Source: Escherichia phage vB_EcoM_G17
Length of the DNA: 64,000 nucleotides
Direction: 5' to 3' (one strand)
Sequence record: MK327931.1
In this document: positions 20,277 to 43,265 of the stretch, piece after piece
Numbering within the stretch: the first letter of the stretch is position 1
Layout of the letters: each line of letters begins with the position of its first letter
The notes under the pieces: model-generated
Database searches by the model: none
Told to the model about the DNA's origin: nothing
The model's input: only the letters and a program-made list of their open reading frames with translations
Position numbers and translations under genes: made by a program

Positions 20277-20632
20277 ACAATACCTCTCTTATGATGCAAA
20301 CATTCTTGCATAATGTGTTGTATTTTTCGTAACAGAAACACATCCAGTTCATTAAAAACAGTACTGTACTGGAACATCTCTTCTTCCCCGTACTCAGTTA
20401 AATCATCAATTTCATCTCTAGAAACAGCTACAATATTAAAACCACGTGTACTACAATAACCCTTAGTAAGATAATATATGTACTTGTACTCTCCGTTGAT
20501 ATCTAAGAGATCTTGTGTGATACAGAAGCTTTTGGGTGACAGTTTATCATCAGGAACCATATGCCTTGCTTGTACATAGCAACGGATACCATCACCTATA
20601 CTATATGTAATAACTTCAAATTCAATCTTCAT
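20255..20632 (-). CDS. family A paralog; function unknown
   Basis: core GEEEMFQYSTVFN; trimmed to MKIEFEV (the track start 20698 overlaps the upstream gene by 77 nt). Confidence 0.65.
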   Translation of the reverse strand: MKIEFEVITYSIGDGIRCYVQARHMVPDDKLSPKSFCITQDLLDINGEYKYIYYLTKGYCSTRGFNIVAVSRDEIDDLTEYGEEEMFQYSTVFNELDVFLLRKIQHIMQECLHHKRGIVCDVNLN

Positions 20633-20984
20633 AGGTGAATATAATCCTTTTATATTGCTCAGGTGCAGTACTGAAACGTTTGATTGGATAATTATCAAAG
20701 ATTCTTTTCATTTCTTTCTGGATTAAACATAAGAAATCAAAGTTACAATCGTACTTATTATCCCATACTAAACTTTCTTGGAATAACTCATCCTCTTGCA
20801 TTAGTGTAGTGTCAATTACATCTTCACGGACATAGCTATATACTTCATAGCTCTTGAAGCCATCTTCTGATAATTCTAATTCATATGCAGCCATATCAAA
20901 CATATCATCATGGTTTGTCTTCAAAGATATTAAACAAGTAACTAATTTTTTAGTTGTATAGTATGTAATACTTAATGTGTTCAT
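20622..20984 (-). CDS. family A paralog (short form); function unknown
   Basis: core QEDELFQESLVWD. Confidence 0.75.
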   Translation of the reverse strand: MNTLSITYYTTKKLVTCLISLKTNHDDMFDMAAYELELSEDGFKSYEVYSYVREDVIDTTLMQEDELFQESLVWDNKYDCNFDFLCLIQKEMKRIFDNYPIKRFSTAPEQYKRIIFTYED

Positions 20985-21592: not shown

Positions 21593-22143
21593 AATAGTTC
21601 CTTATACATATGATGTACTTTACAAATCTCATTATAGTATTTCATATCAATGTCATTTGTATTAAAAACGGAAACAGACAATACTGCTAACTTATCAATT
21701 AAGTAATTATTATCGGCGTACTGTTTTAACTTATTGAACATATAGATGCATTTTATACTTAATTCATCATGCAACACACTGTTCTGAAAAATATTCTCTT
21801 CAGTATTAGGAGATAAGTAATCTTCAATTATATACGATAAACTACTATCGCAATCTTTATAGATTGAAATTGATGGATGTAATGTGTCATACATTACACT
21901 AAACAGATCACCGTCATATGTGGATATTAAACTATTATTGGAAACAGTAGGATGATAATATTTCAGTACTGAAAACTTTGAACAATCAGTGCAGTAAAAA
22001 TGATCCATCCCTCGACGACTTTCGTATGAGAATAGTTTACTTGTATATTCAATCCCTTTGGTGCGACGGATTGTTTCATGCATTTCTGCACATTGCATTA
22101 AAATTACCATACGTTCAAACGCAAGATCTAAATCATCGTACAT
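21583..22143 (-). CDS. family A paralog; function unknown
   Basis: core TEENIFQNSVLHD. Confidence 0.75.
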   Translation of the reverse strand: MYDDLDLAFERMVILMQCAEMHETIRRTKGIEYTSKLFSYESRRGMDHFYCTDCSKFSVLKYYHPTVSNNSLISTYDGDLFSVMYDTLHPSISIYKDCDSSLSYIIEDYLSPNTEENIFQNSVLHDELSIKCIYMFNKLKQYADNNYLIDKLAVLSVSVFNTNDIDMKYYNEICKVHHMYKELLCQ

Positions 22144-22324
22144 AACGGATATCCTTCTTCAACGAATTAATATATTCCAAAATAACTTGTTCCTGATATT
22201 GGGTTCCCAAGTACATCAGTACTTTCAACTCTTTGAATTCAGTACTATATGAGTCTGTTTGCATCATTCTAGTAGAATATATATTGAATAGTTTAGCAAT
22301 ATCATCTTGGTCTATTATTTTCAT
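22133..22324 (-). CDS. family B small paralog embedded in the family A array
   Basis: core YLGTQYQEQVILEYINSL. Confidence 0.7.
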   Translation of the reverse strand: MKIIDQDDIAKLFNIYSTRMMQTDSYSTEFKELKVLMYLGTQYQEQVILEYINSLKKDIRYVR

Positions 22325-22520
22325 TAACCCTCTTCTGTATTAGTTCCTGTAAGTGCTGAATATAACCCTTCATTGCAACATCCTGTTTGTTAGAGCCAAC
22401 GAAGAACAAGAGCTTAAAGTCATGGTAATCCATTTTTGGTTTAGTAGTGAACCATATGTCCCACACTGCACTCACAGTTCTCATGTATTCAATTCGATTA
22501 AATGTTTTTGAATACTTCAT
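22302..22520 (-). CDS. family B small paralog embedded in the family A array
   Basis: core FVGSNKQDVAMKGYIQHL. Confidence 0.65.
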   Translation of the reverse strand: MKYSKTFNRIEYMRTVSAVWDIWFTTKPKMDYHDFKLLFFVGSNKQDVAMKGYIQHLQELIQKRVNENNRPR

Positions 22521-23034
22521 CGATGTTCATTGCCAATAAGTTAATATACAAATTACTGTTAAATGCTATCTGCAATTCCATATAGAACTGAATGATTGCA
22601 TAGTCAGGGTCAGTACACGATAGTTGAAAACACTGTTCGTCGAATGCATTGTAATTGTACTTAGGGATGTGAATTTCACGCTTCAAATCAGGTTGCCCCC
22701 ACTTCATCGCGTACACACCAATGTTATTGTTCTTTTTCCTTTTCTTAAATGTTAATTGTTGAATATTTCCTGCGTTATCCAGGAAAATAGAATTATTCGA
22801 CACAGGTGCACCAATAGAAAACAATGATGTATCAATTACGTGTTTCTCACGTACATCACACTTCTGAAATGCACCTGTACCCTGTAATACACGATGAAAA
22901 TTGTACTTCTCATTAACAACAGTACTAGGATCAATTAAACCAGTACTGCATTTTTTGAGTACTGGTACGATGATACGAATCTTTTTTGATAAATCTTGTA
23001 ATGCATCAAAGTCATTGATGTTAACTTTCATCAC
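22498..23034 (-). CDS. family A paralog; function unknown
   Basis: core FDEQCFQLSCTDP. Confidence 0.7.
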   Translation of the reverse strand: MMKVNINDFDALQDLSKKIRIIVPVLKKCSTGLIDPSTVVNEKYNFHRVLQGTGAFQKCDVREKHVIDTSLFSIGAPVSNNSIFLDNAGNIQQLTFKKRKKNNNIGVYAMKWGQPDLKREIHIPKYNYNAFDEQCFQLSCTDPDYAIIQFYMELQIAFNSNLYINLLAMNIDEVFKNI

Positions 23035-23480
23035 TCAAATGTGGCCTCTTCAGTAGTAACAAAATTGATTAGTGTATCCAGTTCAGCAGTGTCAAGATAA
23101 AATACATCCAGTACTGATTTCTGATATATTACACTGAATGTGCATAGATTGTCAAGCGTTCCTTGTTCATAAACAGTACTACCCTGGAAGTACCCTTCTT
23201 CAGTACTCAGGGATAAAATGTCTGAAATTTTAAAAGATTCTTCAGTCGCATGTCTTTCTATATTAACTAAATGTCCGTTTCGGTTCAATGAAATATAATC
23301 GTATGCTAACTCAATTAGACTATAATTATCCGCATTAGTGTCAAATAAAGCGACAATTTTTCGTCTCAATCTCTCATCGTGATCATGGTTTTCATCAGCT
23401 AAGTATTCAGGATTTTCTTTGAAGAACTGAACAACTTTTAGAATATCATTTGCTTTCTTGATTGCACTTTCGTAACTCAT
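23031..23480 (-). CDS. family A paralog; function unknown
   Basis: core STEEGYFQGSTVYE. Confidence 0.75.
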   Translation of the reverse strand: MSYESAIKKANDILKVVQFFKENPEYLADENHDHDERLRRKIVALFDTNADNYSLIELAYDYISLNRNGHLVNIERHATEESFKISDILSLSTEEGYFQGSTVYEQGTLDNLCTFSVIYQKSVLDVFYLDTAELDTLINFVTTEEATFE

Positions 23481-23785
23481 AATAATTCAACCACTCCATC
23501 TCTAAAGTACATATAACTACCACCATTGGATACCTTGAATTCTATTGTCCCCAATAATATATTATATTTTTTTATTTCACATGTAGTACTGGTAGTGTAA
23601 GGCTCACCATCTCCTAAGTACATTGACATATGACATAGAACTTTTCTACCTGCATATTTCTCTTCAAACGATTGTTCAAAACTATGCATAATTTGATTTA
23701 AAGCTGAAATGTAATTAATAAAGTCAGGTATTTCTGTCAATGAATTATAAACCGTACAAAGTGAATCAAATTCATTTTTAGTCAT
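23477..23785 (-). CDS. hypothetical protein (no FQ core)
   Basis: 102-aa ORF, 4-nt overlap with the upstream gene. Confidence 0.65.
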   Translation of the reverse strand: MTKNEFDSLCTVYNSLTEIPDFINYISALNQIMHSFEQSFEEKYAGRKVLCHMSMYLGDGEPYTTSTTCEIKKYNILLGTIEFKVSNGGSYMYFRDGVVELL

Positions 23786-24099
23786 TATATTTCTATCTCA
23801 ATGTAATCCTGTGTGATTAAGTAATCCCAATGATACTTCACCTGCTTTTGTAATTCAATTAACGTAAAGAAGTTGATCGATTTATCCCATACGAGCGATT
23901 CCTGGAAAATAAATGATTCATGTTCATCGTAATAATCACACTCTAAAAAATCAGGTATATATTCACTATCGTGAATGTATTCAACAAACGAACTAGCTTG
24001 GCATTTCTTTACTACTAGTAATAATGAATTATCATGATCAAACAGATACAATAAACTAATTTCACCAGGGACGTACTGAACACTGAATAAGTTTTTCAT
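23785..24099 (-). CDS. family A paralog (short form); function unknown
   Basis: core HESFIFQESLVWD. Confidence 0.75.
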   Translation of the reverse strand: MKNLFSVQYVPGEISLLYLFDHDNSLLLVVKKCQASSFVEYIHDSEYIPDFLECDYYDEHESFIFQESLVWDKSINFFTLIELQKQVKYHWDYLITQDYIEIEI

Positions 24100-24548
24100 T
24101 CTATACCTTCTGGATCTTTACGAAGTTCTTCGAAATCCAAATAAAATCGAGGACAGTTAACACTCTTTAAGTACCACATAATAACTAATGCTTCAAGTAC
24201 TTCATCATCGTAAACAGTACTGTTTTGGAAGTAATACTCTTCACTATCCCACGGACCATCCAGTACTTCATAATTCAAAATTAATGGTTTTTTGCGATTA
24301 ATAAAACGAATGCTACCATTTTCAACATAACTAATAAATTCTGCATCTCTATTGTATTCAGAAAACGATATAGGACTATTGGAATTCAACCCAAGAATAA
24401 CCCTTACACCCACGGAGTTATTATACATTTCATCTTTGTAGTAGTTGCCGTTCTCGGCTTTGTACACTTCTTTGAACTTTCCTGCCTTTATATCGTCAAA
24501 GTATCCATGTAGTTCTTTTGCTTTTTCAAGAGCACTTTGTAATGACAT
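24096..24548 (-). CDS. family A paralog, MSLQSAL subgroup
   Basis: N-term MSLQSALEKAKELH; core VLDGPWDSEEYYFQNSTVYD. Confidence 0.8.
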   Translation of the reverse strand: MSLQSALEKAKELHGYFDDIKAGKFKEVYKAENGNYYKDEMYNNSVGVRVILGLNSNSPISFSEYNRDAEFISYVENGSIRFINRKKPLILNYEVLDGPWDSEEYYFQNSTVYDDEVLEALVIMWYLKSVNCPRFYLDFEELRKDPEGIE

Positions 24549-25014
24549 TACCTTCTCCTACAGTATTCTCTACATATTCATAATCAAAATAGAAACTACT
24601 GGAGTCAATACTTTTGAAATACCACATAATTACAATAACATCTAATTCTTCTTCATTGTACAACGTACTATTCTGGAAGTAATATTCTTCACTATCCCAC
24701 GGTCCTTCCAGTACTGAATAAGGAATGATAGTGTCATCAGCATCACTATCTGTGTTGTAGATGGTAATATCTTCATTACGGCAATAACTAATGTACTGAT
24801 TGTACATATGATATTCACAGTTATCACTGTCACCAGTATCAGTGTGCAGTACTAATGTTTCTGCACATATCTCGGACTCGTCATAATCGTCACGGTCTTT
24901 TACAAAAAATTCAGTATCAGATGTTTTATATACACCTGGTACTGAACCTTCCTGTACCATAATCATGTACTCATGAATCTTCTTTGCTTCTTTCAATGCA
25001 CTTTGTAATGACAT
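24526..25014 (-). CDS. family A paralog, MSLQSAL subgroup
   Basis: N-term MSLQSALKEAKKIH; core VLEGPWDSEEYYFQNSTLYN. Confidence 0.8.
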   Translation of the reverse strand: MSLQSALKEAKKIHEYMIMVQEGSVPGVYKTSDTEFFVKDRDDYDESEICAETLVLHTDTGDSDNCEYHMYNQYISYCRNEDITIYNTDSDADDTIIPYSVLEGPWDSEEYYFQNSTLYNEEELDVIVIMWYFKSIDSSSFYFDYEYVENTVGEGNVITKCS

Positions 25015-25457
25015 TACAAATCCCCTGTACTTAAATATTCACATGCTCCCCAGTCAAGAAAGAATGGTTCAAAATTCAATTCCTTAAAGTACCACAACAC
25101 AACCAAGGAATCAAGAATTTCTTGGTTAAAAATGAGACTCTGTTGGAAGTAATACTCTTCAGTACCCCACGGGCCATCAAGTACCCCGAAGTCAACAGGT
25201 GTATTTGTTGTGTCAAAAGTAATCTTAGTACCTGGAATATATACAAAAAAATTAGTATATTGACTACATGAAGAGTACTGTATAGTATTGTCTTTATCCT
25301 GTCCCATAAGTAAAATATCATCAGAGTATGTCTTTATACCTGATAGATAATACTCATCACCAAATGCACTTACTTTATCACCATAGAACCCACTTTTTAT
25401 GTTATCGTGGAAGTGATGTATTCTGTGTGCTAGTTCAAGTGCACTTGCTAAACTCAT
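25014..25457 (-). CDS. family A paralog, MSLQSAL subgroup
   Basis: N-term MSLASALELAHRIH; core VLDGPWGTEEYYFQQSLIFN. Confidence 0.8.
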   Translation of the reverse strand: MSLASALELAHRIHHFHDNIKSGFYGDKVSAFGDEYYLSGIKTYSDDILLMGQDKDNTIQYSSCSQYTNFFVYIPGTKITFDTTNTPVDFGVLDGPWGTEEYYFQQSLIFNQEILDSLVVLWYFKELNFEPFFLDWGACEYLSTGDL

Positions 25458-25924
25458 ATATCCTCTTTAATAACTCGTAGTAGATCCAAGTCCAAATAGA
25501 AGCTAGGACAATCTGTATTATTAAAGTACCACAGAATGACAAGCTTGTCAAGTACATCTTCCTCGTAGATAGTATTCTGCTGGAAGTAGTACTCTTCACT
25601 TCCCCAGTCATTATCCAGTACTGAATACGGAAGATGTTTCTCTGCTGCACCAGATATAATGTCAGAATCTTGTATTAAAATATCAGCATCACGACAGAAG
25701 TACATGTAATTATCTTCCAAATTAACATCACACCCATTGAGTGTTGTTTCAGAAGAATCTAAGTTTTCTTCATACATGTGAATGTACTCACTACTGTCAT
25801 CGTATCTCATTCGACAATATGATTTACCTTCCTTGAATAGATATCCATTAAGACAATTTGCTACAATTTCTTTGCTGCATAAATCAATTAACTTCGCAAT
25901 CTCTAATGCTCTTTCTAAACTCAT
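25454..25924 (-). CDS. family A paralog, MSLQSAL subgroup
   Basis: N-term MSLERALEIAKLID; core VLDNDWGSEEYYFQQNTIYE. Confidence 0.8.
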   Translation of the reverse strand: MSLERALEIAKLIDLCSKEIVANCLNGYLFKEGKSYCRMRYDDSSEYIHMYEENLDSSETTLNGCDVNLEDNYMYFCRDADILIQDSDIISGAAEKHLPYSVLDNDWGSEEYYFQQNTIYEEDVLDKLVILWYFNNTDCPSFYLDLDLLRVIKEDI

Positions 25925-25925
25925 T

Positions 25926-26417
25926 TCAACCCCTGTTAATACCGTTATCTACAGTTTTCTTTACGTATTTGTAATCGAAATAGAAGTTCCCAGAACCAAT
26001 ACTTTTAAAGTACCACATAATTATAATAACATCAAGTACTTCATTATCATATACAGTACTTTGTTGGAAGTAATACTCTTCACTATCCCACGGACCTTCC
26101 AGTACTTCACTCGGAATTATAATGTCATTGGAATCGCTGTCAGTACTGTTGATGGTATCTGTATCATTAATATAGACCATGTACTCATTATGCATATTAA
26201 TGAAGCATTCATAATCATTAGGGTCGGTATCTAGTATGCACGTTTCTGTATCCAGTACGCACGTTTCTGTATCTGAGCAGTCATTATAAAGGAGGTTATC
26301 CGGTACATAATATTGAGTACTTGTGTCTTTGAAAACACCGTAAACTGAACCTTCTTTTGCCATATTCATGTACTCATGAATCTTCTTTGCTTTTTCCAAT
26401 GAACTCTGTAATGTCAT
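25926..26417 (-). CDS. family A paralog, MSLQSAL subgroup
   Basis: N-term MTLQSSLEKAKKIH; core VLEGPWDSEEYYFQQSTVYD. Confidence 0.8.
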   Translation of the reverse strand: MTLQSSLEKAKKIHEYMNMAKEGSVYGVFKDTSTQYYVPDNLLYNDCSDTETCVLDTETCILDTDPNDYECFINMHNEYMVYINDTDTINSTDSDSNDIIIPSEVLEGPWDSEEYYFQQSTVYDNEVLDVIIIMWYFKSIGSGNFYFDYKYVKKTVDNGINRG

Positions 26418-26426
26418 TTTATAATC

Positions 26427-26786
26427 TCATATATTGAAATAATAATTATTCGTTCTTGATGGGGATGGATTAAATACGTTTTCTTTTTCAAATCTCTTCA
26501 TTTCATTTTGCAAAGAAACCATTTCTTCAAATGTACAGGAGTACTTATTCTTATCAAACACTAATGCAGCCTGAAATAGTTCCCCATCGTCCAGTACTGT
26601 ATAATCTATAAGACTCTCAGATTCATAGTCATAGTCGTCATGTGATACATGAATAAATTTAAAACAAGAATCTTTGTAATGCATATATAAACTCAACTCA
26701 TGTTCCGAGTCGCCCTTAATAAGATTACAGCACAAGTCCCATCCTTTAGGTAACTTATAATAGTACATAGAATAATCATATGTCAT
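26427..26786 (-). CDS. family A paralog (short form)
   Basis: core DYTVLDDGELFQAALVFDK. Confidence 0.75.
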   Translation of the reverse strand: MTYDYSMYYYKLPKGWDLCCNLIKGDSEHELSLYMHYKDSCFKFIHVSHDDYDYESESLIDYTVLDDGELFQAALVFDKNKYSCTFEEMVSLQNEMKRFEKENVFNPSPSRTNNYYFNI

Positions 26787-27139
26787 TCTTGAATTCCTAA
26801 ATTGAATTTGTATTCTTGATTAATACTTGCATTGGGTTTATGCAAAGCAGCATACTCTTTCATTTCATTTTGTATTGCAATAACTTCTTCAAATGTACAC
26901 AAGTACTTCTTATCAAATACTAATGATTCTTGGAATAGTTCTGCGGTATCCATTAATGTATAGTCCGGCATATCTTGGTGTGGATACTGTAATGAACTGT
27001 AATCAATGAATGTAAATTTACCCTGAGTGTAATGAATATACTCATTTGCACTGTGCATTAAATCACCTTTGTTTAAATTACAAAAGTACTGATAACTGTG
27101 CTTGAAAGTATGTACTGATATTAAAAAATCAAATTCCAT
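26783..27139 (-). CDS. family A paralog (short form)
   Basis: core DYTLMDTAELFQESLVFDKKY. Confidence 0.75.
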   Translation of the reverse strand: MEFDFLISVHTFKHSYQYFCNLNKGDLMHSANEYIHYTQGKFTFIDYSSLQYPHQDMPDYTLMDTAELFQESLVFDKKYLCTFEEVIAIQNEMKEYAALHKPNASINQEYKFNLGIQE

Positions 27140-27510
27140 CAGTACTCAACCTCTACATAAATAGATTCAGGAAACTTAGTCATATAATCTTCTGGATAGT
27201 TCTGCATTACTTTGATCATTTCTGCCTGTGTAGCACGGACGTATTCAATTGGTGCTCCTGGTAAATTCCAGACAGTACTTTCCTGAAAGAATTCCTCTTC
27301 TGACAGTACTGTCAGATTTACAAAATCATTACGGTAATTTTTTGAATCATCATATGTGAAGATTTTAAAAGACCCATTTTCATATAGTACAAGAACAAAA
27401 TGGGAGAATTTTTGTAATGCACCACCAAGGCTTTCCACGACCGCATGATTCAGTGTACAGATGACCTCTTTTTTCCTCATACCGAATTGAATTCTAATTT
27501 CTTTTTTCAT
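27139..27510 (-). CDS. family A paralog (short form)
   Basis: core NLTVLSEEEFFQESTVWN. Confidence 0.75.
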   Translation of the reverse strand: MKKEIRIQFGMRKKEVICTLNHAVVESLGGALQKFSHFVLVLYENGSFKIFTYDDSKNYRNDFVNLTVLSEEEFFQESTVWNLPGAPIEYVRATQAEMIKVMQNYPEDYMTKFPESIYVEVEY

Positions 27511-27668
27511 AAAATCTCCTTCAGATTAGTACTGAATTTGTACAGAATATTAGAACTGTATACAGCCTCTGTATCTGTATCCATAATCAAATCACCTTTG
27601 TTTAAATTACAAAAGTACTGATAACTGTGCTTAAAAGAATGTACTGATATTAAAAAATCAAATTCCAT
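27507..27668 (-). pseudogene. truncated family A copy (N-terminal fragment, 53-codon ORF)
   Basis: first ~80 nt almost identical to the 5' end of 26783..27139 (MEFDFLISVH.FKHSYQYFCNLNKGDL), then diverges; lacks the FQ core; ATGA junctions on both sides. Confidence 0.6.
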
Positions 27669-28045
27669 CACACTTCCCCTAGATTGAAATGATTACAAAA
27701 ATCATCTTCACCAGTACTGCACCAGATATCTATACATTCCCTGTGAATACATTTAATTCTACGCTGTAATTCAATCATCTCTTCTAATGTACAGATGTAC
27801 TTCTTATCAAATACTAATGCCGCCTGAAACAGTGCAGCATCATCAAGTACTGTATAGTCCAACATCTCGGTTGCTTTACCCCTAAACCCAGTACTAAAAT
27901 CCATCAAATAAAAGTCAGCATTCCAGTACTTTAAAATCTTGTCCCTAGCGTAGTTTAAATCACCCTTGTATAAGTTAGAGTGCGTAACTAACTCACCAGT
28001 GTACATCCATGTCCTTGCACAAAATTCATTATATTTTATTTCCAT
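27668..28045 (-). CDS. family A paralog (short form)
   Basis: trimmed to MEIKYNEF; core DYTVLDDAALFQAALVFDKKY. Confidence 0.7.
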   Translation of the reverse strand: MEIKYNEFCARTWMYTGELVTHSNLYKGDLNYARDKILKYWNADFYLMDFSTGFRGKATEMLDYTVLDDAALFQAALVFDKKYICTLEEMIELQRRIKCIHRECIDIWCSTGEDDFCNHFNLGEV

Positions 28046-28243
28046 CTTAATCTCTACTATAATTAATAAGGTAAACTCCAATATAAGGAGAACGTTCGGC
28101 GGCGGGGTATTTTTTGTTTCAAGAAACATGAACTGTACTCTGAAAAACACAATATAAAACTTTATATTAAACATATACCTTAGCATGTTTTTCAGCGGAA
28201 ATTTTTTTGACCCCCCCCTGCGGCCTGTCAAAATGAAACGTCT

Positions 28244-28468
28244 CTATTTATTCAGCCTAGAAACCTTGATTTCTTCAATCCTTTTCATTGCACAAAGCCT
28301 TCGACTCGTCCTCTCGTATATATTCAATACTCGCTGTAATGCATTATCTGTATTATCTGCAACTGCAATCTGAACCAAATATGTATCCTTCAAAATAGAA
28401 TCCATCATGAATTCAAAACCTTTCACACTAAAGCAATATGCCACTTCCGGCTCTTCAAACGTAATCAT
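28244..28468 (-). CDS. hypothetical small protein
   Basis: 74-aa ORF. Confidence 0.55.
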   Translation of the reverse strand: MITFEEPEVAYCFSVKGFEFMMDSILKDTYLVQIAVADNTDNALQRVLNIYERTSRRLCAMKRIEEIKVSRLNK

Positions 28469-28685
28469 AATTCCAATCCCCTATTCCCTCTAACCTTCTA
28501 AGATATCTTGCGTAAATTATTTCGAAATATCTGTGCAACGAAATTACGGATTGCTCATAATCATCATTCCTGTACATTGTGCATGTCAGAAAATCATTTA
28601 ACCCAAAATCTAAACTGCACTTGAACTTCTCCTTTGCAATATCACTATTACTTGCACTTTTCATAATAAACCCTTTGTACCGCAT
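28455..28685 (-). CDS. hypothetical small protein
   Basis: ORF; the start may be the internal MKSASNS at 28664. Confidence 0.55.
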   Translation of the reverse strand: MRYKGFIMKSASNSDIAKEKFKCSLDFGLNDFLTCTMYRNDDYEQSVISLHRYFEIIYARYLRRLEGIGDWNYDYV

Positions 28686-28824
28686 TGGTGTACTGTGAAC
28701 TCAGCACCACTAATAGGTAATCTATATTGTAAGCACGATTTCCTCGTTGACTAGCACGGCTGGAATAAAGAATATTATCCACATATGTATTGAACTGATC
28801 TTCAAATAACTCTTTCATCAGCAT
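28648..28824 (-). CDS. possible small protein (58 aa)
   Basis: below track cutoff; fills a gap; no clear SD. Confidence 0.3.
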   Translation of the reverse strand: MLMKELFEDQFNTYVDNILYSSRASQRGNRAYNIDYLLVVLSSQYTNAVQRVYYEKCK

Positions 28825-28846
28825 TATACCATCACATAATCATACA

Positions 28847-29398
28847 TCATACATTAACAACTTTATCGATGTAATCTTCTAACATATCAATATATCTGGT
28901 ATTGGTTCTAACTAAAAGGTATGCAAATCCAGAAAACTCCTGTGTATAATGCTTTACAGCGTACATACAACGAAGCTTATCATTGTCATACATTGTACTG
29001 TACTGAAACAAACTCTCGTCTGATAGCTCTAATAACGCTTGGGCTTCACTTCTCGTGAACTTCATAGGGTCATGTACTGCATCACAAAAACAAACCTGTG
29101 TCTCGCTATTGAAACCCTGTGATAGATATATACCTTCACACTCTGAACGCACCGATACTGCATTATAACTATGTGTTGCCCCCATCATATCTGAACTCAA
29201 AACTAAAATCAACCCATTTTTATTTTTAATCAACAAATCTGACTTAAGGGATTTGATCTCCGTATGGGAAATATCACCAAATCTTCCTGGGACTTCAAAC
29301 TTATCAACGTTGTATACAATCTTTTGTACTTGCTCTTTTAAACGCTTAATTGCACTTCTGTCTTTTTCTAATGTATCTAATAAACTCATTGAACTCAT
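28847..29398 (-). CDS. family A paralog; function unknown
   Basis: trimmed to MSSMSLLD after AAGGAAAG; core SDESLFQYSTMYD. Confidence 0.75.
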   Translation of the reverse strand: MSSMSLLDTLEKDRSAIKRLKEQVQKIVYNVDKFEVPGRFGDISHTEIKSLKSDLLIKNKNGLILVLSSDMMGATHSYNAVSVRSECEGIYLSQGFNSETQVCFCDAVHDPMKFTRSEAQALLELSDESLFQYSTMYDNDKLRCMYAVKHYTQEFSGFAYLLVRTNTRYIDMLEDYIDKVVNV

Positions 29399-29408
29399 TG
29401 TACTTTCC

Positions 29409-38192: not shown

Positions 38193-38400
38193 AATCTCTT
38201 TTTGCTTTCCTCGCCAAAAGGTACATATACGATTCTTCGTATTGTGCTTGGTAGTTTGTGTTTAAGAGTCGAAACAACTTCTGTTCTGCTAGAACTAGTT
38301 GCTTATCTTCATAACAACGGTAGCGTATCAACTTTTTGTATTCGATGTTGATTACATCCATTACTATAAGCCCATGTTCATCATCTGTCAAGTGTTTCAT
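38170..38400 (-). CDS. family B small paralog
   Basis: core LLNTNYQAQYEESYMYLL. Confidence 0.7.
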   Translation of the reverse strand: MKHLTDDEHGLIVMDVINIEYKKLIRYRCYEDKQLVLAEQKLFRLLNTNYQAQYEESYMYLLARKAKRDYENFKQR

Positions 38401-38639
38401 GCATTTTTTCTTTTTCTTATATGTTTAGTTAAAAGGTATATTAGTTTTCTGATGTATTCTTCTTGATAGTTTGTTCCTAAGAGTGCAAGAAGTTTTGCTT
38501 CAACTAAAGCTAGTTGTCGTTCTTCGAATGTGTGTTCCAGTATGTACTTGGGGTTTGATTTTTTAGCGTAAGCACTATTAGTCTTCATTACAATCTTATG
38601 ATATTCATTAGCTGTTAGGATTTTTAAATACTTGATCAT
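38397..38639 (-). CDS. family B small paralog
   Basis: core LLGTNYQEEYIRKLIYLL. Confidence 0.75.
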   Translation of the reverse strand: MIKYLKILTANEYHKIVMKTNSAYAKKSNPKYILEHTFEERQLALVEAKLLALLGTNYQEEYIRKLIYLLTKHIRKRKNA

Positions 38640-38859
38640 GTATCTTTTCCTTTATAGAGAATTTAAGATATCGAAGCATACTTTCAATGTAATACTCTTG
38701 TCTGTCAGTGCCAAGAAAGTACATGAGTTGAATGTATAAAACTTCTGCACTCCTTTCCGCTGGAGACTTGTTTGTGTCGTTTGGAAGTTGATTTGTATGT
38801 TTTCTTGATTTAATTAGTCGTTCTTTTAACTCATCGTCTGTTAAGTATTTCATTTTCAT
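38608..38859 (-). CDS. family B small paralog
   Basis: core FLGTDRQEYYIESMLRYL. Confidence 0.75.
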   Translation of the reverse strand: MKMKYLTDDELKERLIKSRKHTNQLPNDTNKSPAERSAEVLYIQLMYFLGTDRQEYYIESMLRYLKFSIKEKIHDQVFKNPNS

Positions 38860-39085
38860 TTACTTTTTCCTTAATAGTGATTTTAAGATATCTAATCATA
38901 CGTGCAACATATTCCTCTTGTCTATCAGTTCCCAGAAGATATGGTAGTGATTGGAATAATACTTCTGCACTCCTTTCTGCTGGGGTTTGGTTTAGGTCAA
39001 TTGGACGTTTATTGGTATATCTCTTGGCACGAACTAATCTCTCGACGTATTCATTATAGGTTAAGTATATCATTTCATTTTGCAT
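38831..39085 (-). CDS. family B small paralog
   Basis: core LLGTDRQEEYVARMIRYL. Confidence 0.75.
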   Translation of the reverse strand: MQNEMIYLTYNEYVERLVRAKRYTNKRPIDLNQTPAERSAEVLFQSLPYLLGTDRQEEYVARMIRYLKITIKEKVNENEILNRR

Positions 39086-39305
39086 TTACTTTTTCCTTAA
39101 TACTCATTATAAGATGTTCAATCATATTTTGAACCATAAATTCTTGTTTATCAGTTCCAAGAACGTATGGTAGCTTCTGAAACAATACATTTGCAGATAC
39201 TTCAGATATTGATTGATTTGGAACGAACTTAAGAGTAATGTTTTTGGTTTTTAACATCTTCTCTTGAAATTCTTCATTCGTTAAGTATATCATTTCATTT
39301 TGCAT
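39075..39305 (-). CDS. family B small paralog
   Basis: core VLGTDKQEFMVQNMIEHL; N-term MQNEMIYLT shared with 38831..39085. Confidence 0.75.
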   Translation of the reverse strand: MQNEMIYLTNEEFQEKMLKTKNITLKFVPNQSISEVSANVLFQKLPYVLGTDKQEFMVQNMIEHLIMSIKEKVNAK

Positions 39306-39521
39306 TTACATTCTCTCATATATATTTTGGGTTAAAAGGTCAATCCAGATTTCCACATATCGTTGTTGGTGTTGCGTCCCTAACAGTACACCCAACTTAG
39401 CTTCACACTCTAATAACAATCTGGTTTTGTATGGTAGACTTTGGAATCCTATAGTAGCATCTAATTTGGTAATTGCATAGTTGATTCGGATGAATCTTTC
39501 TTGCAATGTGATGTTGTTCAT
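39306..39521 (-). CDS. family B small paralog
   Basis: core LLGTQHQQRYVEIWIDLL. Confidence 0.75.
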   Translation of the reverse strand: MNNITLQERFIRINYAITKLDATIGFQSLPYKTRLLLECEAKLGVLLGTQHQQRYVEIWIDLLTQNIYERM

Positions 39522-39808
39522 TTCTTAGTACACCTCAGTGGTTGGGTCATTTGATAAAAGTACAGCTTACCTTTGATTTCCAGTAGTAACTCCGCGATTA
39601 AGCGATTTACTTCTGTATCTTGATAGTTTGTTCCTAAGAATACACCCATCTTTAACTCACGCATCATAATCATTTTCTTACTGTGTTGAATTTCTGGGTT
39701 GTGATAGATTGTATTACGTTTGTGCGTAATTTTTGTCATACGCTCGGTATATTCATCTTTACTTAAATTGATCATTTGCATGTTCATCAACCTCACATTT
39801 ATTTTCAA
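39518..39808 (-). CDS. family B small paralog
   Basis: core FLGTNYQDTEVNRLIAEL. Confidence 0.75.
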   Translation of the reverse strand: MKINVRLMNMQMINLSKDEYTERMTKITHKRNTIYHNPEIQHSKKMIMMRELKMGVFLGTNYQDTEVNRLIAELLLEIKGKLYFYQMTQPLRCTKK

Positions 39809-39810
39809 TA

Positions 39811-40077
39811 CTATTCTTTAGTTTGTAGATATAGTTTTCTTCCAATGTATCTCTTAAGTGCGATTATGTATTCATCTACATAATACTCCTGATAGTTTGT
39901 TCCTATGAATGCACCCACCTTTAACTCAAGTTTCATAATCATCTTATTTCCGTGTTTAATGACTTCTCCGTGATGGATTTCATTAAGTCCAGGTGCAATT
40001 TTCACCAGGCGTTCTTTATATTTTGCTTGAGATAATTTAATCATTTTCATGTTAATTACCCTTACATTTATTTTCAA
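39811..40077 (-). CDS. family B small paralog
   Basis: core FIGTNYQEYYVDEYIIAL. Confidence 0.75.
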   Translation of the reverse strand: MKINVRVINMKMIKLSQAKYKERLVKIAPGLNEIHHGEVIKHGNKMIMKLELKVGAFIGTNYQEYYVDEYIIALKRYIGRKLYLQTKE

Positions 40078-40282
40078 TACTATTCATGAGTTCTATAAGA
40101 TAGTTTTCTACCTTACCTTCCTGATAGTTAGTCCCTAGGAAGTTGCACAACACGGCTTCTATGATTTTGATTTTCCTGATATCAGGCTTCAATCTTTTGT
40201 TATTGAATATTTGAATCCTTATATCTCTGGATGCATTTAAACGTTTTTGATATTCATGGTAAGTTAAATGAATCATTTTCAT
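40052..40282 (-). CDS. family B small paralog
   Basis: core FLGTNYQEGKVENYLIEL. Confidence 0.75.
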   Translation of the reverse strand: MKMIHLTYHEYQKRLNASRDIRIQIFNNKRLKPDIRKIKIIEAVLCNFLGTNYQEGKVENYLIELMNSIENKCKGN

Positions 40283-40497
40283 TTACGTTTAACCTCTCGC
40301 TGGAGGGCATCAATTAACATCAGTACAGCATTCTCTTGATAGTTTGTTCCTAAGACTGAAAGCATCTTTATCTCATTTACTAAAATCAACTTCTTTGAGG
40401 GTTCAATAATGTGACTATCATAAACGGCCTTACGTGCTGGATAAGTTTTCGCCAGTATAACATAAAATTCGTCTTTACTTAAATTAATCATTTGCAT
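40279..40497 (-). CDS. family B small paralog
   Basis: core VLGTNYQENAVLMLIDAL. Confidence 0.75.
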   Translation of the reverse strand: MQMINLSKDEFYVILAKTYPARKAVYDSHIIEPSKKLILVNEIKMLSVLGTNYQENAVLMLIDALQREVKRK

Positions 40498-40706
40498 TTA
40501 CTTTTAACCTCTTTCTGTAGAGCGTCAATCCATAGATCTACATACATTTGTTGATAGTTTGTGCCTAAGAGTGCACCTACATAGAGTTCAGTTACTAGTG
40601 CGTGCTTAAGGTTAGCTTGGATGCTCTTATCGCTTGATATCATTCTCCTTCTGCTTCCACATGTTTTCAGGAGTCTGATGTATTCAAAGCCTTGTAAATT
40701 TCTCAT
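40488..40706 (-). CDS. family B small paralog
   Basis: core LLGTNYQQMYVDLWIDAL. Confidence 0.75.
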   Translation of the reverse strand: MRNLQGFEYIRLLKTCGSRRRMISSDKSIQANLKHALVTELYVGALLGTNYQQMYVDLWIDALQKEVKSKCK

Positions 40707-40918
40707 ATTTTGGATACCACCTTGTTACGTAAGGAACTTAATAATACGTCAGTGTAGATGTTTTGATAGTTTGTCCCTACGAATACACCCAACTTCATTT
40801 CAGCTATTATAACACATTTGTCCTCTTGTGCAATAGATTTGTTTAACACAATACTATACACTTTTGATTTGATAGTTTGTAACCTCCAATGATACTGATA
40901 CTCATTAAGGATTATCAT
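40703..40918 (-). CDS. family B small paralog
   Basis: core FVGTNYQNIYTDVLLSSL. Confidence 0.75.
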   Translation of the reverse strand: MIILNEYQYHWRLQTIKSKVYSIVLNKSIAQEDKCVIIAEMKLGVFVGTNYQNIYTDVLLSSLRNKVVSKI

Positions 40919-41165
40919 TCTCTTTCCTCCAGATTTCGGTTCTCATGTGTTGGCAGTGTGCATCAATATATTGCTCTATCGATCTGGCGATTGCTGTTTT
41001 ATCAGTGCCTGTCATCAGTACAAGCATCTCGGCCTCACAGTGAAGTAAACGCATGATATCATAGGGTAATATTTCAGATACCGTGTCATAGTGTTTCTGT
41101 GCCAGTGTCTGCAATAGTTTACAATACATTTTGTGATTTAGTCTTTGTCGCATTGTTTCTTCCAT
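40905..41165 (-). CDS. family B small paralog (divergent core)
   Basis: core-equivalent LMTGTDKTAIARSIEQYIDA. Confidence 0.6.
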   Translation of the reverse strand: MEETMRQRLNHKMYCKLLQTLAQKHYDTVSEILPYDIMRLLHCEAEMLVLMTGTDKTAIARSIEQYIDAHCQHMRTEIWRKENDNP

Positions 41166-41410
41166 TCTCTTCTGGCTTGGCGGGTTTTATCTGATATTTC
41201 GTTTCTCAATGCAGAGATATATCGTAGAGTGAACAGTTCTTGATAGTTAGTCCCTATGAATTTATTAAGATATACATCAGCGTTGACGATATCAGCTTCA
41301 CGGGAATTATAAAGTTTATTGTTAGTGCGAAGGGTGTTTAGAAGAGAGAAGAGGGCAGTCTGATACTCAGTGCTTGATAAAGTTTTCATATTTTTCCACA
41401 ATTCGTTCAT
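41138..41410 (-). CDS. family B small paralog
   Basis: core FIGTNYQELFTLRYISAL. Confidence 0.75.
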   Translation of the reverse strand: MNELWKNMKTLSSTEYQTALFSLLNTLRTNNKLYNSREADIVNADVYLNKFIGTNYQELFTLRYISALRNEISDKTRQARREWKKQCDKD

Positions 41411-41624
41411 TTAGTTTTATCTGTATAAGATCCATTAGTTGTTCAAGATAATCGGTACAATATTTCTCTTGATATTGGGTTCCCACAAAGTACAGCAACC
41501 ATAGCTCATGAACTTTAACTTTCATCTCGTTCCATGAAAGTGCATCGTCATCGTAGATTACTCTTGCTTCTGGGGTGAGCTTTCGAATTCTAAGTGAATA
41601 TTCATCGTCCGTCAAGTGTTTCAT
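41367..41624 (-). CDS. family B small paralog
   Basis: core FVGTQYQEKYCTDYLEQL. Confidence 0.75.
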   Translation of the reverse strand: MKHLTDDEYSLRIRKLTPEARVIYDDDALSWNEMKVKVHELWLLYFVGTQYQEKYCTDYLEQLMDLIQIKLNERIVEKYENFIKH

Positions 41625-41779
41625 TTACATTTATCCCTTATTAGATTTGTGAGTGCAACTATGTGTTCATGGATATAAAAATTTTGATGAGAAGTTCCAA
41701 GAAAGTACAGCATCCATCCCTCACTCTGCTCGACTTCTAGTTTAGTATCGAGTTGGTCAGATATGTTAATGAAAACCAT
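41621..41779 (-). CDS. family B small paralog (52 aa, N-terminally short)
   Basis: below track cutoff; core FLGTSHQNFYIHEHIVAL; TAATG and ATGA junctions. Confidence 0.6.
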   Translation of the reverse strand: MVFINISDQLDTKLEVEQSEGWMLYFLGTSHQNFYIHEHIVALTNLIRDKCK

Positions 41780-42036
41780 TAGTTCTTTTCCTTTCTTTCT
41801 ATTTGTTTCATAAGAACATCGATATACTCACCCGCAAACCTATTCTGATACTGCGTCCCCATGAATTCCAACATCCATACTTCAGCAACCTTTTCTTCAA
41901 TTTCAGTCCATTGTAAGTACATCATAGTGAAGTAAATGGTGTTCTCTTTTTTTCTGGCACTCTTAGCACGGGCCTCGTATTCAAAGTTATTAATGATGTT
42001 CATTACATTTGTCCATAATGTAATTCTTGAGTGCAA
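41779..42036 (-). CDS. family B small paralog
   Basis: core FMGTQYQNRFAGEYIDVL. Confidence 0.75.
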   Translation of the reverse strand: MHSRITLWTNVMNIINNFEYEARAKSARKKENTIYFTMMYLQWTEIEEKVAEVWMLEFMGTQYQNRFAGEYIDVLMKQIERKEKN

Positions 42037-42217
42037 CTATGTGTGCAATAACATACTCTTCCTGGAAGTTCGTCCCCAGTACAGCCAACATGCGTACATC
42101 GGTGGTGTTTATCTTGTGTTCCAATCGAGTTAAACCTTTTATTTGTAAAAGGGTATCGTATTTGTTTAATGCATCAATGATAATTCTCATCTTCTCAATA
42201 TTACTTAAATGTTTCAT
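41990..42217 (-). CDS. family B small paralog
   Basis: core VLGTNFQEEYVIAHIVAL. Confidence 0.75.
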   Translation of the reverse strand: MKHLSNIEKMRIIIDALNKYDTLLQIKGLTRLEHKINTTDVRMLAVLGTNFQEEYVIAHIVALKNYIMDKCNEHH

Positions 42218-42426
42218 AGTTTACTCTTAATGTAGTTCTGAAGTTCAATTAAGTATTTCCCTACATAATACTCCTGAAAGTCTGTATCCAAAAATGCACC
42301 CAAAAGTAAATCCTTCTCCATTGCCCTTGATAAGTTAAGGTCTGCATTTGAAAGGTATATAAGTAATATTTCAGTCTGGACAGAATTAAAACGTTTCTTA
42401 TATTCTTCAGGTGTTAATATAATCAT
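42214..42426 (-). CDS. family B small paralog
   Basis: core FLDTDFQEYYVGKYLIEL. Confidence 0.75.
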   Translation of the reverse strand: MIILTPEEYKKRFNSVQTEILLIYLSNADLNLSRAMEKDLLLGAFLDTDFQEYYVGKYLIELQNYIKSKL

Positions 42427-42638
42427 AATTTGCTCCTGATGTATTTCTCAAGAGATGACAAATACTTTTCCTCATAATACTCCTGATAGTCTGTTCCCAA
42501 GAATGCACCCATAAGTATTTCATTTTCCAATACCTCGGCTAAGTTTAAATCAGACGTCTCTTCGTATATTATGAGGATTTCAAGTTGTCTGGCAGCGATG
42601 CGTTCAGTATATTGATATGAGTTTTCTATAATAATCAT
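42423..42638 (-). CDS. family B small paralog
   Basis: core FLGTDYQEYYEEKYLSSL. Confidence 0.75.
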   Translation of the reverse strand: MIIIENSYQYTERIAARQLEILIIYEETSDLNLAEVLENEILMGAFLGTDYQEYYEEKYLSSLEKYIRSKL

Positions 42639-42844
42639 ATTTTACTCTTAATATCTTCTATTAAAAATCGAATCCATTCTTCAACATAATCTTCCTGATG
42701 GTTTGTGTTCAGTACAGCCAACATGCGGATCTCTGCTCTTGCAACTTCAATTTCAGTTTTAGGCAGGTCTTTGCTGATATCCACCATTAAGTCCATGTAT
42801 TTCAAGATAAGACCGTATGATTGGGTTCGTGTTATAGTTTTCAT
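42635..42844 (-). CDS. family B small paralog
   Basis: core VLNTNHQEDYVEEWIRFL. Confidence 0.75.
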   Translation of the reverse strand: MKTITRTQSYGLILKYMDLMVDISKDLPKTEIEVARAEIRMLAVLNTNHQEDYVEEWIRFLIEDIKSKI

Positions 42845-43041
42845 TGTTTCCTCGTGGACAATATTTTATTTTTCAATGTATCCATATATTGCCACACCCA
42901 TCTACCCTGATAGTTTGTTCCCAATGTAATCAAAAGGTATAACTCCATTCGTTCTACGTGTGTGTCTGTGTTGTAAATCTTTACGTAGTTTTTACGTAAC
43001 AGTGATTGATATTCTTCTTTATTTAAAATACGCATTTTCAT
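42841..43041 (-). CDS. family B small paralog
   Basis: core TLGTNYQGRWVWQYMDTL. Confidence 0.75.
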   Translation of the reverse strand: MKMRILNKEEYQSLLRKNYVKIYNTDTHVERMELYLLITLGTNYQGRWVWQYMDTLKNKILSTRKQ

Positions 43042-43235
43042 AGTTTACTCGTTATATCTTCAATTAAATACCAAATCCAATCGTTGACATACCTTTCCTG
43101 AAAGTTAGTTCCAATGAATAGTGCCATAATTAATTCACGCTTATAGGCAATACCACGGTCATGGGACTTATACATTATCATAGCCATGTTATTGATAAGT
43201 CTTTCGTGGTGCTGTTCTTTAGTTAAAATACGCAT
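43038..43235 (-). CDS. family B small paralog (first gene of the array)
   Basis: trimmed to MRILTKEQ after AAGGGAG; core FIGTNFQERYVNDWIWYL. Confidence 0.75.
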   Translation of the reverse strand: MRILTKEQHHERLINNMAMIMYKSHDRGIAYKRELIMALFIGTNFQERYVNDWIWYLIEDITSKL

Positions 43236-43265
43236 AGGGACTCCCTTAAAATTAATATCAATCAT

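Follow-up and report, generated by a model that had tools for sequence, protein, structure and literature searches.

The array and its genes

The stretch of DNA analyzed here, referred to as the window, comprises 64,000 nucleotides of Escherichia phage vB_EcoM_G17 (sequence record MK327931.1). Between positions 24096 and 28045 it contains a tandem array of nine small genes together with a chimeric stub of 53 codons, and the stub and one of the genes belong to a 529-bp unit that is present in some related phages and absent from others. The origin of this unit, and its bearing on the age of the array, are the main subjects of what follows. All nine genes and the stub are on the minus strand, which holds nearly all of the open reading frames (ORFs) of more than 90 amino acids in the window. 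The G+C content is ∼0.29-0.35 over the first 40 kb of the window and 0.36-0.40 further on.

The array begins with five long-form genes, all matching phrog_9317: A1 (24096-24548, 150 amino acids; phrog_9317 at E = 5e-60 and the superfamily hidden Markov model (HMM) at E = 4e-20), A2 (24526-25014, 162 amino acids), A3 (25014-25457, 147 amino acids), the A4 gene (25454-25924, 156 amino acids), and A5 (25926-26417, 163 amino acids). The shared N termini and the extended core, VL(D/E)GPW..EEYYFQ..WY(F/L)K, by which an earlier, sequence-only reading of this DNA had grouped these five paralogs are indeed present. The four short-form genes that it placed immediately downstream were likewise recovered, one of them in a different protein family. 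L (26427-26786, 119 amino acids), M (26783-27139, 118 amino acids), and G28 (27668-28045, 125 amino acids from MEIKYNEF, with longer, upstream starts annotated in some records) match phrog_15629, and N (27139-27510, 123 amino acids) matches phrog_13866 (E = 2e-41), another subfamily of the same superfamily. Five phrog_9317 genes in a row and three of phrog_15629 thus lie on the same strand, the neighboring copies of one family that an amplification array would show. The window proteins match these three families at E = 1e-41 to 1e-66, all of them recorded as of "unknown function," and the record of Escherichia phage SHEFM2K (PQ390715, 348 kb) carries the same assignments.

SHEFM2K is 100.0% identical to window bases 24000-28300. 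This locus is matched, at 78-100% identity, by 35 records that correspond to 33 distinct Asteriusvirus-group phages (the 121Q/PBECO4 group, including 121Q, PBECO4, phAPEC6, and slurp01); the complete E. coli genomes searched gave no match to it. No description of the gene family, called FQ-core here after its invariant motif, or of the cassette containing N was found in the literature.

Two peculiarities of the short-form genes in relatives may be recorded here. In UE-S1 (locus L012, 6765-7493), the orthologs of G28 and M form a single fused ORF of 242 amino acids because the stop/start overlap has been lost, giving a natural two-domain short form. An "amidohydrolase 3" label attached to the G28 ortholog in the phAPEC6 record (locus L005, 7669-8046) has no support from Pfam and was rejected.

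The 85-nt repeat and the chimeric stub

The sequence-only reading had drawn attention to a 53-codon ORF that repeats the 5′ end of M almost exactly and then diverges, and this observation is accurate. The repeat is 85 nt long, with one copy at 27057-27141, covering the 5′ end of M and the TG of the preceding stop codon, and the other at 27586-27670, forming the head of the stub; the copies are identical at 82 of 85 positions, are spaced 529 nt apart, and give way to completely divergent sequences beyond the repeat. It is the only repeat of at least 20 nt with at least 90% identity between 22 and 31 kb. The same repeat is seen again in ten independently assembled phage genomes and is therefore neither a chance resemblance nor an assembly artefact. 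The presence/absence unit defined by it occupies 27142-27670 and consists of 444 nt of unique sequence plus one copy of the repeat.

The stub itself (27507-27668, minus strand) is a fusion, in frame, of codons 1-25 of M, whose first 83 nt are copied in it, to the 3′ end of a gene resembling A4_364 of phage A4. This origin was established by alignment of the window, phAPEC6, slurp01, Turkey3, and 121Q with phage A4 and by comparison of the encoded proteins. In phage A4, A4_364 is a full-length gene of 192 amino acids located immediately upstream of N, and its C terminus (..QQDLIMDVDSAATYSSNVLCKEFQNSKILELLYIADCNILYKFCTHLKEIL) matches the second part (DLIMD...YKFSTNLKEIL) of the stub of 121Q, which is longer than that of the window, being an ORF of 74 amino acids that reads MEFDF..NLNKG followed by DLIMDTDTEVVYSSNVLCKEFQNSKMLELLCIADCNILYKFSTNLKEIL. 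In the window, the A4_364-like remnant spans 27511-27585 (minus strand) and aligns both to the region upstream of the N copy of phage A4 (locus L009) and to 121Q. Relative to 121Q, an in-frame deletion of 63 nt, situated on the minus strand between 27545 and 27546, is common to the window, phAPEC6, slurp01, and Turkey3; in 121Q, AAT(G/A)TTCTGT repeats stand on either side of the missing segment.

Both ends of the copied M segment coincide with short identities. At the first junction, J1, alignment reveals the microhomology GATTT (minus strand), which the stub has at 27589-27593 and M at 27060-27064; at the second, J2, comparison of the sequences reveals TGATGGA (minus strand), which contains the stop/start overlap and occurs at 27135-27141 and 27664-27670. 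The stub is closely knit into its surroundings, its ATG overlapping the stop codon of G28 (TGATG) and its stop codon overlapping the ATG of N (ATGA), whereas N in turn ends in a TGATG overlap with M. The Shine-Dalgarno sequence of N, AAGGAG, lies at 27516-27521, inside the tail of the stub. The cassette thus came with its own ribosome-binding site and kept the chain of coupled frames intact. From this arrangement, the stub probably persists for the ribosome-binding site of N and for the G28-stub-N-M chain of stop/start overlaps.

The repeat copies of 121Q are less alike than those of the window. Its stub copy (locus L004, 7650-7734) has 12 mismatches to the M copy of the window, compared with three for its M copy, and the differences in the stub copy include a clustered block of 8 nt (GGTGCACC) that resembles the allele of M in UE-S1; the two copies of the repeat can thus derive from different M alleles.

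Distribution of the 529-bp unit

A search of 50,697 phage records with the 444 unique bases of the cassette found them in 12 only, corresponding to ten distinct phages at this locus plus phage A4 at its other slot. The 529-bp unit is present at the locus in 10 of the 33 related phages and absent from 22. Among the ten carriers, the cassette is 100.0% identical to that of the window in five and 99.8% identical in three, with slurp01 at 97.1% and 121Q at 95.7%. When window positions 22000-31000 were compared by blastn with 15 loci fetched from relatives, the unit was present in SHEFM2K, phAPEC6, slurp01, 121Q, and Turkey3 and cleanly absent from E9.1, PBECO4, SP27, WPEC5, ph0011, UE-S1, fEgEco12, and SD-1_S14. 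In the latter genomes, the blastn segments on either side have precisely 85 nt in common.

The region is a mosaic among relatives, of which Turkey3 provides the clearest case. It is 98-100% identical to the cassette-free fEgEco12 in nearly all 50-nt windows across 25937-27090 and 27586-28485, yet its cassette is 100.0% identical to that of the window over 444 nt, between flanks that are only 74-96% identical to the window. Moreover, the stub copy of its repeat carries the single-nucleotide polymorphisms (SNPs) of its own clade, as found in WPEC5 and fEgEco12, and its M copy carries those of the window, with the exception of the last variable site. The mismatch between cassette and backbone, taken with this pattern of SNPs, indicates a recent gain by homologous recombination, with both switch points within the 85-nt repeat.

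Other parts of the locus vary in a different manner. In WPEC5, Turkey3, ph0011, and fEgEco12, A5 is swapped gene-for-gene for an ORF of 61 amino acids and an M-like ORF of 137 or 138 amino acids; in phage A4, the left end of the locus is arranged differently; and in JNE01, A-like and M-like genes are interleaved. Distant clades therefore differ by replacement and not by whole-unit copy number. Extended identity between the stub head and the M head is present, and gene content differs among relatives, so neither of the observations that the sequence-only reading had named as telling against it was made. Its description of the array as "actively expanding and contracting" nevertheless applies only to the cassette of N and stub and not to the repeat units of the family: the item gained or lost is one heterologous cassette, not a copy of the array's repeat unit.

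Origin of the 529-bp unit

These observations are probably best explained by the pasting of a 529-bp cassette into an old array through microhomology-mediated recombination, of the illegitimate or template-switch kind, followed by its spread through homologous recombination. Two features carry the argument. The microhomologies at both junctions, of 5 and 7 nt, fall within the range of 2-10 nt looked for in templated insertions, and a contiguous source exists elsewhere, the 3′ end of A4_364 and A4_365 adjoining one another in phage A4 with 94.9% identity over 410 nt. There, N (94.9% nucleotide and 93% amino acid identity) is found together with the full-length upstream gene at a different slot, which by gene order is the position of the window gene at 20622-20984, a gene with 28% amino acid identity to N. 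The upstream gene is complete in phage A4 and reduced to a fused tail in the window, and the change therefore ran from a whole gene to a piece of one.

Of the possible routes to this product, the simplest would be a template switch leading out of M and back to its start, or else two equivalent illegitimate joins with a donor. The unit would have been made once. Synthesis or joining would have left M at GATTT, ∼83 nt into the gene, continued through the last ∼140 nt of another gene and the whole of N, copied from an A4-like donor, and re-entered at the start of M via TGATGGA, with duplication of the M head and formation of the in-frame chimeric stub as the outcome. A later in-frame deletion of 63 nt would have trimmed the stub in the lineage of the window. 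The two 85-nt repeats would since then serve as portable homology arms, by which the cassette would move between co-infecting relatives and could be lost likewise; such loss, by the reverse reaction between the repeats, is plausible.

The sequence-only reading had regarded the stub as the footprint of unequal crossing-over, and in this it was right about a genuine recombination scar and mistaken about the process. Homologous unequal crossing-over between misaligned short-form paralogs, by which the array would expand and contract by whole repeat units, would readily provide a near-identical repeat of 85 nt and a copy content that varies among relatives. However, no in-register hybrid junction between homologous repeats was found: at about nucleotide 83, M joins a non-orthologous 3′ end at GATTT, a microhomology of 5 nt in place of a homologous tract, and past the 85 nt the stub resembles neither M nor the array in register but consists of the C terminus of an A4_364-like gene. 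In addition, the gained gene, N, falls in another PHROG. A single crossover at these sites would give a deletion or duplication of ∼6 kb, so an insertion of 529 bp with duplication of 83-85 nt requires two joins. Unequal crossing-over is accordingly very unlikely in our estimate. We give still less credence to the unit being an autonomous mobile element, of the homing-endonuclease or transposon-like type, that inserts itself. Its patchy distribution, the identical copies in divergent backbones, and the second location in phage A4 are what such an element would produce, but neither N nor the source gene of the stub has a nuclease, integrase, recombinase, or transposase match in Pfam, and N belongs to the array's own superfamily, in which it is unexceptional. 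Furthermore, the unit has no inverted repeats or short duplications resembling target sites, and all ten copies are at one site, with switch points within the 85-nt homology.

Two further explanations concern the history of the unit after its formation. The cassette could be ancestral for the genus, with the cassette-free genomes arising from repeated deletions between the 85-nt direct repeats, which are good substrates for such events. In keeping with this, the single copy in E9.1, PBECO4, and SD-1_S14 is the predicted recombinant of stub 5′ and M 3′ sequence, and the differences between E9.1 and the window are almost confined to 27000-27250. Against it, cassette-free genomes occur in every clade, including distant ones (WPEC5, fEgEco12, ph0011, and UE-S1), the A-A allele is widespread in their M heads, and the copy in Turkey3, at 100.0% identity to the window in a backbone of 74-96%, is a recent import. 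An ancestral cassette is, on balance, unlikely, although it deserves some weight. Somewhat less probable again is that selection keeps the stub for its protein, as a new functional gene, and that it is not a passive scar. Its ORF is intact in 10 of 10 carriers, the deletion of 63 nt is in frame, and the start and stop overlaps are retained; however, few independent lineages are represented, most copies being 99.8-100% identical, and translational coupling to N would explain the open frame equally well. The protein has 53 amino acids and lacks the core fold, and the deletion removed the part with the FQ motif of the family.

Insertion from an A4-like donor followed by homologous spread has its own difficulties. 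Phage A4 only stands in for the donor and is the sole genome in the databases with the donor-type arrangement. A double crossover, a gene-conversion patch, and an excised circle of 529 bp all predict the structure of Turkey3 equally. The three variable sites of the repeat leave the polarity of insertion and deletion ambiguous for closely related pairs, and the T-A-A pattern at these sites in the single copy of E9.1, PBECO4, and SD-1_S14 is that of a deletion product. As both an ancestral allele and a deletion recombinant would show this pattern, some of the cassette-free genomes may be deletion derivatives.

Age of the array

The same data bear on the claim of the sequence-only reading that the array is the result of recent tandem amplification. 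At the amino acid level, A2 is 38% identical to A1, 30% to A3, 33% to the A4 gene, and 58% to A5, of which it is in turn the nearest paralog; apart from this pair, the paralogs are 30-39% identical. In codon alignments, the identity of paralogs at third codon positions is 39-46%, with 59% for A2-A5, values that are close to saturation for such an A+T-rich genome. The best nucleotide tract among the long-form paralogs is a core of 145 nt that is 66-77% identical, and nowhere among A1-A5 were near-identical copies with unsaturated synonymous sites found.

The comparison of orthologs points the same way. Nine core-clade phages hold a separate ortholog for every one of A1-A5, in conserved order and with 82-100% identity; the genomes checked for this order were E9.1, PBECO4, 121Q, phAPEC6, slurp01, SP27, UE-S1, and SD-1_S14, and the exception to the range is A1 of SP27, a divergent allele with 69% identity. 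The number of A1-A5 genes is constant in the nine core-clade phages, with no whole-unit differences in copy number among close relatives. The ratio of nonsynonymous to synonymous substitution rates (dN/dS) between orthologs is mostly 0.02-0.62 across the array (0.25-0.37 for A1, and for A2 0.06-0.12 against Asteriusvirus relatives and 0.24 against phage A4), and these are therefore functional genes under purifying selection. Low identity between paralogs, near-saturated third positions, and one-to-one ordered orthologs together leave recent amplification unsupported. The five long-form and three phrog_15629 genes would instead have been duplicated long before the sequenced Asteriusviruses diverged and would have been maintained since by purifying selection, with the 529-bp unit as the sole young feature. 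The result corrects an attractive but wrong reading: the array is not amplifying now.

Two small-scale features of the long forms are of separate interest. Over the opening 20 codons of A2 and A5 (24955-25014 and 26358-26417, respectively), third positions are 95% identical, compared with 59% gene-wide, which could be due to a local tract of gene conversion or to constraint on the 5′ end at the nucleotide level. A5 also contains, at 26224-26265, a tandem duplication of 21 nt, 86% identical between copies and encoding TETCVLD/TETCILD, of which one copy is missing in several orthologs.

The FQ-core protein family

The array is one part of a larger family. When an HMM was iterated within the window, it gathered 42 of the 68 ORFs that the minus strand carries in 8191-36889, amounting to ∼19.4 kb of coding sequence, with no matches among 990 decoys and 253 plus-strand ORFs, and all nine array genes match it at E = 1e-16 to 1e-24. 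The common core of ∼85 residues consists of a β-sheet followed by a helix with the motif ..E-x-[FY]-F-Q-x-S-x-[VIL]-[YFW], in which FQ is invariant. The long and short forms align over this core (hhalign E = 5e-4, at low probability). Thus, whereas PHROGs separates phrog_9317, phrog_15629, and phrog_13866, HMM iteration, hhalign, and structural models indicate one superfamily. AlphaFold models of A2 (pLDDT 85.5, pTM 0.82) and M (pLDDT 85.8, pTM 0.82) have an antiparallel sheet and then the motif-bearing helices; in the long forms, there are in addition an N-terminal helix and a sheet region that varies.

Searches for distant relatives returned little beyond the genus. Pfam gave only sub-threshold noise (DUF6051 and RINGv) for the ten array proteins, sequence profiles of the PDB gave nothing below E = 0.2, and Foldseek against viral models (BFVD) found uncharacterised proteins only and no convincing fold relative; the matches named there belong to PBECO4, slurp01, 121Q, and Klebsiella phage RaK2, with a weaker one in a Yersinia jumbo phage (E = 0.039). 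A word-indexed protein search yielded 23 relatives of A2 and nine of M, the named ones being Asteriusvirus or E. coli records on contigs of ∼350 kb, with the exception of one Actinomadura entry. An exhaustive profile search retrieved 91 cluster representatives from 1.84 billion, and the source names in ten sampled clusters were Asteriusvirus or E. coli hypothetical proteins only. The exceptional entry, a partial M homolog of 103 amino acids with 86% identity, is filed under Actinomadura adrarensis on a contig of 563 bp and almost certainly reflects phage DNA contaminating that assembly.

As to function, the virion proteome of phAPEC6 comprises 62 proteins, with no gp4xx in Table 1 of the report (PMC7247149), and the phAPEC6 orthologs, gp438c-gp447c, are not among them. 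The N termini, as read from the sequences, are amphipathic and not signal-like. The family is restricted to jumbo phages, and the description that suits it best is that of a non-structural, cytoplasmic, lineage-specific group; a role in host interaction or anti-defence is a guess. A bolder proposal is that the FQ-core domain is an undescribed fold serving as a battery of inhibitors of host factors or defences, one that grows mainly by taking up divergent alleles of co-infecting relatives rather than by duplication in situ. We regard this as improbable, albeit worth stating. If true, more than 40 copies and ∼19 kb, or ∼5-6% of the 348-kb genome, would be given over to it, and the N cassette would be its first caught example, of allele capture via microhomology joins and then spread through self-made repeats. 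In any event, a family of 42 members without a recognisable fold is flagged for functional work.

Comparison with known systems

Tandem arrays in 121Q-type phages were noted by Hua et al., and the remark was repeated for phAPEC6 by Wagemans et al. in 2020 (PMC7247149). The present array resembles these in belonging to the same genus and in the idea of a genome that grows as resident genes are duplicated into long arrays on one strand; it differs in that the FQ-core copies are old (30-58% amino acid identity) and that the one recent gain is a divergent gene captured from another slot or genome and not a duplicate made in place. The remark of Hua et al. most likely concerns not the FQ-core family but an array of 28 copies of ∼75-amino-acid genes at 36.9-43.3 kb, which is described below.

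Closer in some respects is the modular shuffling that promoter-plus-stem-loop (PeSL) elements mediate in T4-type hyperplastic regions (Arbiol et al. 2010, PMC2839356; Comeau et al. 2014, PMC4122927). Here, too, small non-essential ORFan genes are gained, lost, or replaced between nearly identical phages, the insertion or deletion separating Turkey3 from fEgEco12 and SHEFM2K from E9.1. Recombination at short direct repeats flanking a cassette is a further likeness, as is the possibility of mini-circle vectors, the excised PeSL mini-circles of T4-type phages being a precedent for the circle route (PMC2839356). By contrast, the repeats at this locus are a duplicated coding segment of 85 nt made by the insertion itself, and the genes are packed with stop/start overlaps. 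No PeSL repeats flank the N cassette, the core motif being absent in gene orientation within 8-44 kb, and a scan of 20-32 kb for promoters and terminators found no excess over shuffled sequences (68 versus 72.6 and 4 versus 3.6, respectively).

Short-homology join-copy recombination has been described for T4, and templated insertions of the fork stalling and template switching/microhomology-mediated break-induced replication (FoSTeS/MMBIR) type leave products similar to the unit considered here: junctions of 5 and 7 nt, an identifiable source arrangement, and a duplication between the points of exit and re-entry. The difference is that the mechanism is here reconstructed from its product alone. 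What the locus offers is a base-resolved example of a jumbo-phage paralog family gaining a member that comes with self-made homology arms, and a series is available, comprising the donor-type arrangement (phage A4), an intermediate (121Q), the trimmed form, and a recent recipient (Turkey3). It is nonetheless ordinary phage mosaicism, unusually well documented, within an uncharacterised expanded family, and not a new kind of system.

Other repeats in the window

Two further sets of repeats were encountered. A second tandem array, at 36879-43265, consists of 28 paralogs of 66-90 amino acids that share the motif LGTxxQE at 27-56% pairwise identity, and members of the same array type are also found at 22133-22324 and 22302-22520. 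Between 44192 and 63645, at least 26 copies of an intergenic cassette of 73-95 nt stand before almost every small gene. Its core, GATGTAAAACATTATAC, has 30 matches compared with 0.86 expected. On the minus strand, the cassette contains TTGCAA/TTGACA, a 17-nt spacer, TATAAT, and a G+C-rich stem-loop (GGGGAGAA..TTCTCCCC), and by these features it looks like a promoter-plus-hairpin unit of the PeSL kind.

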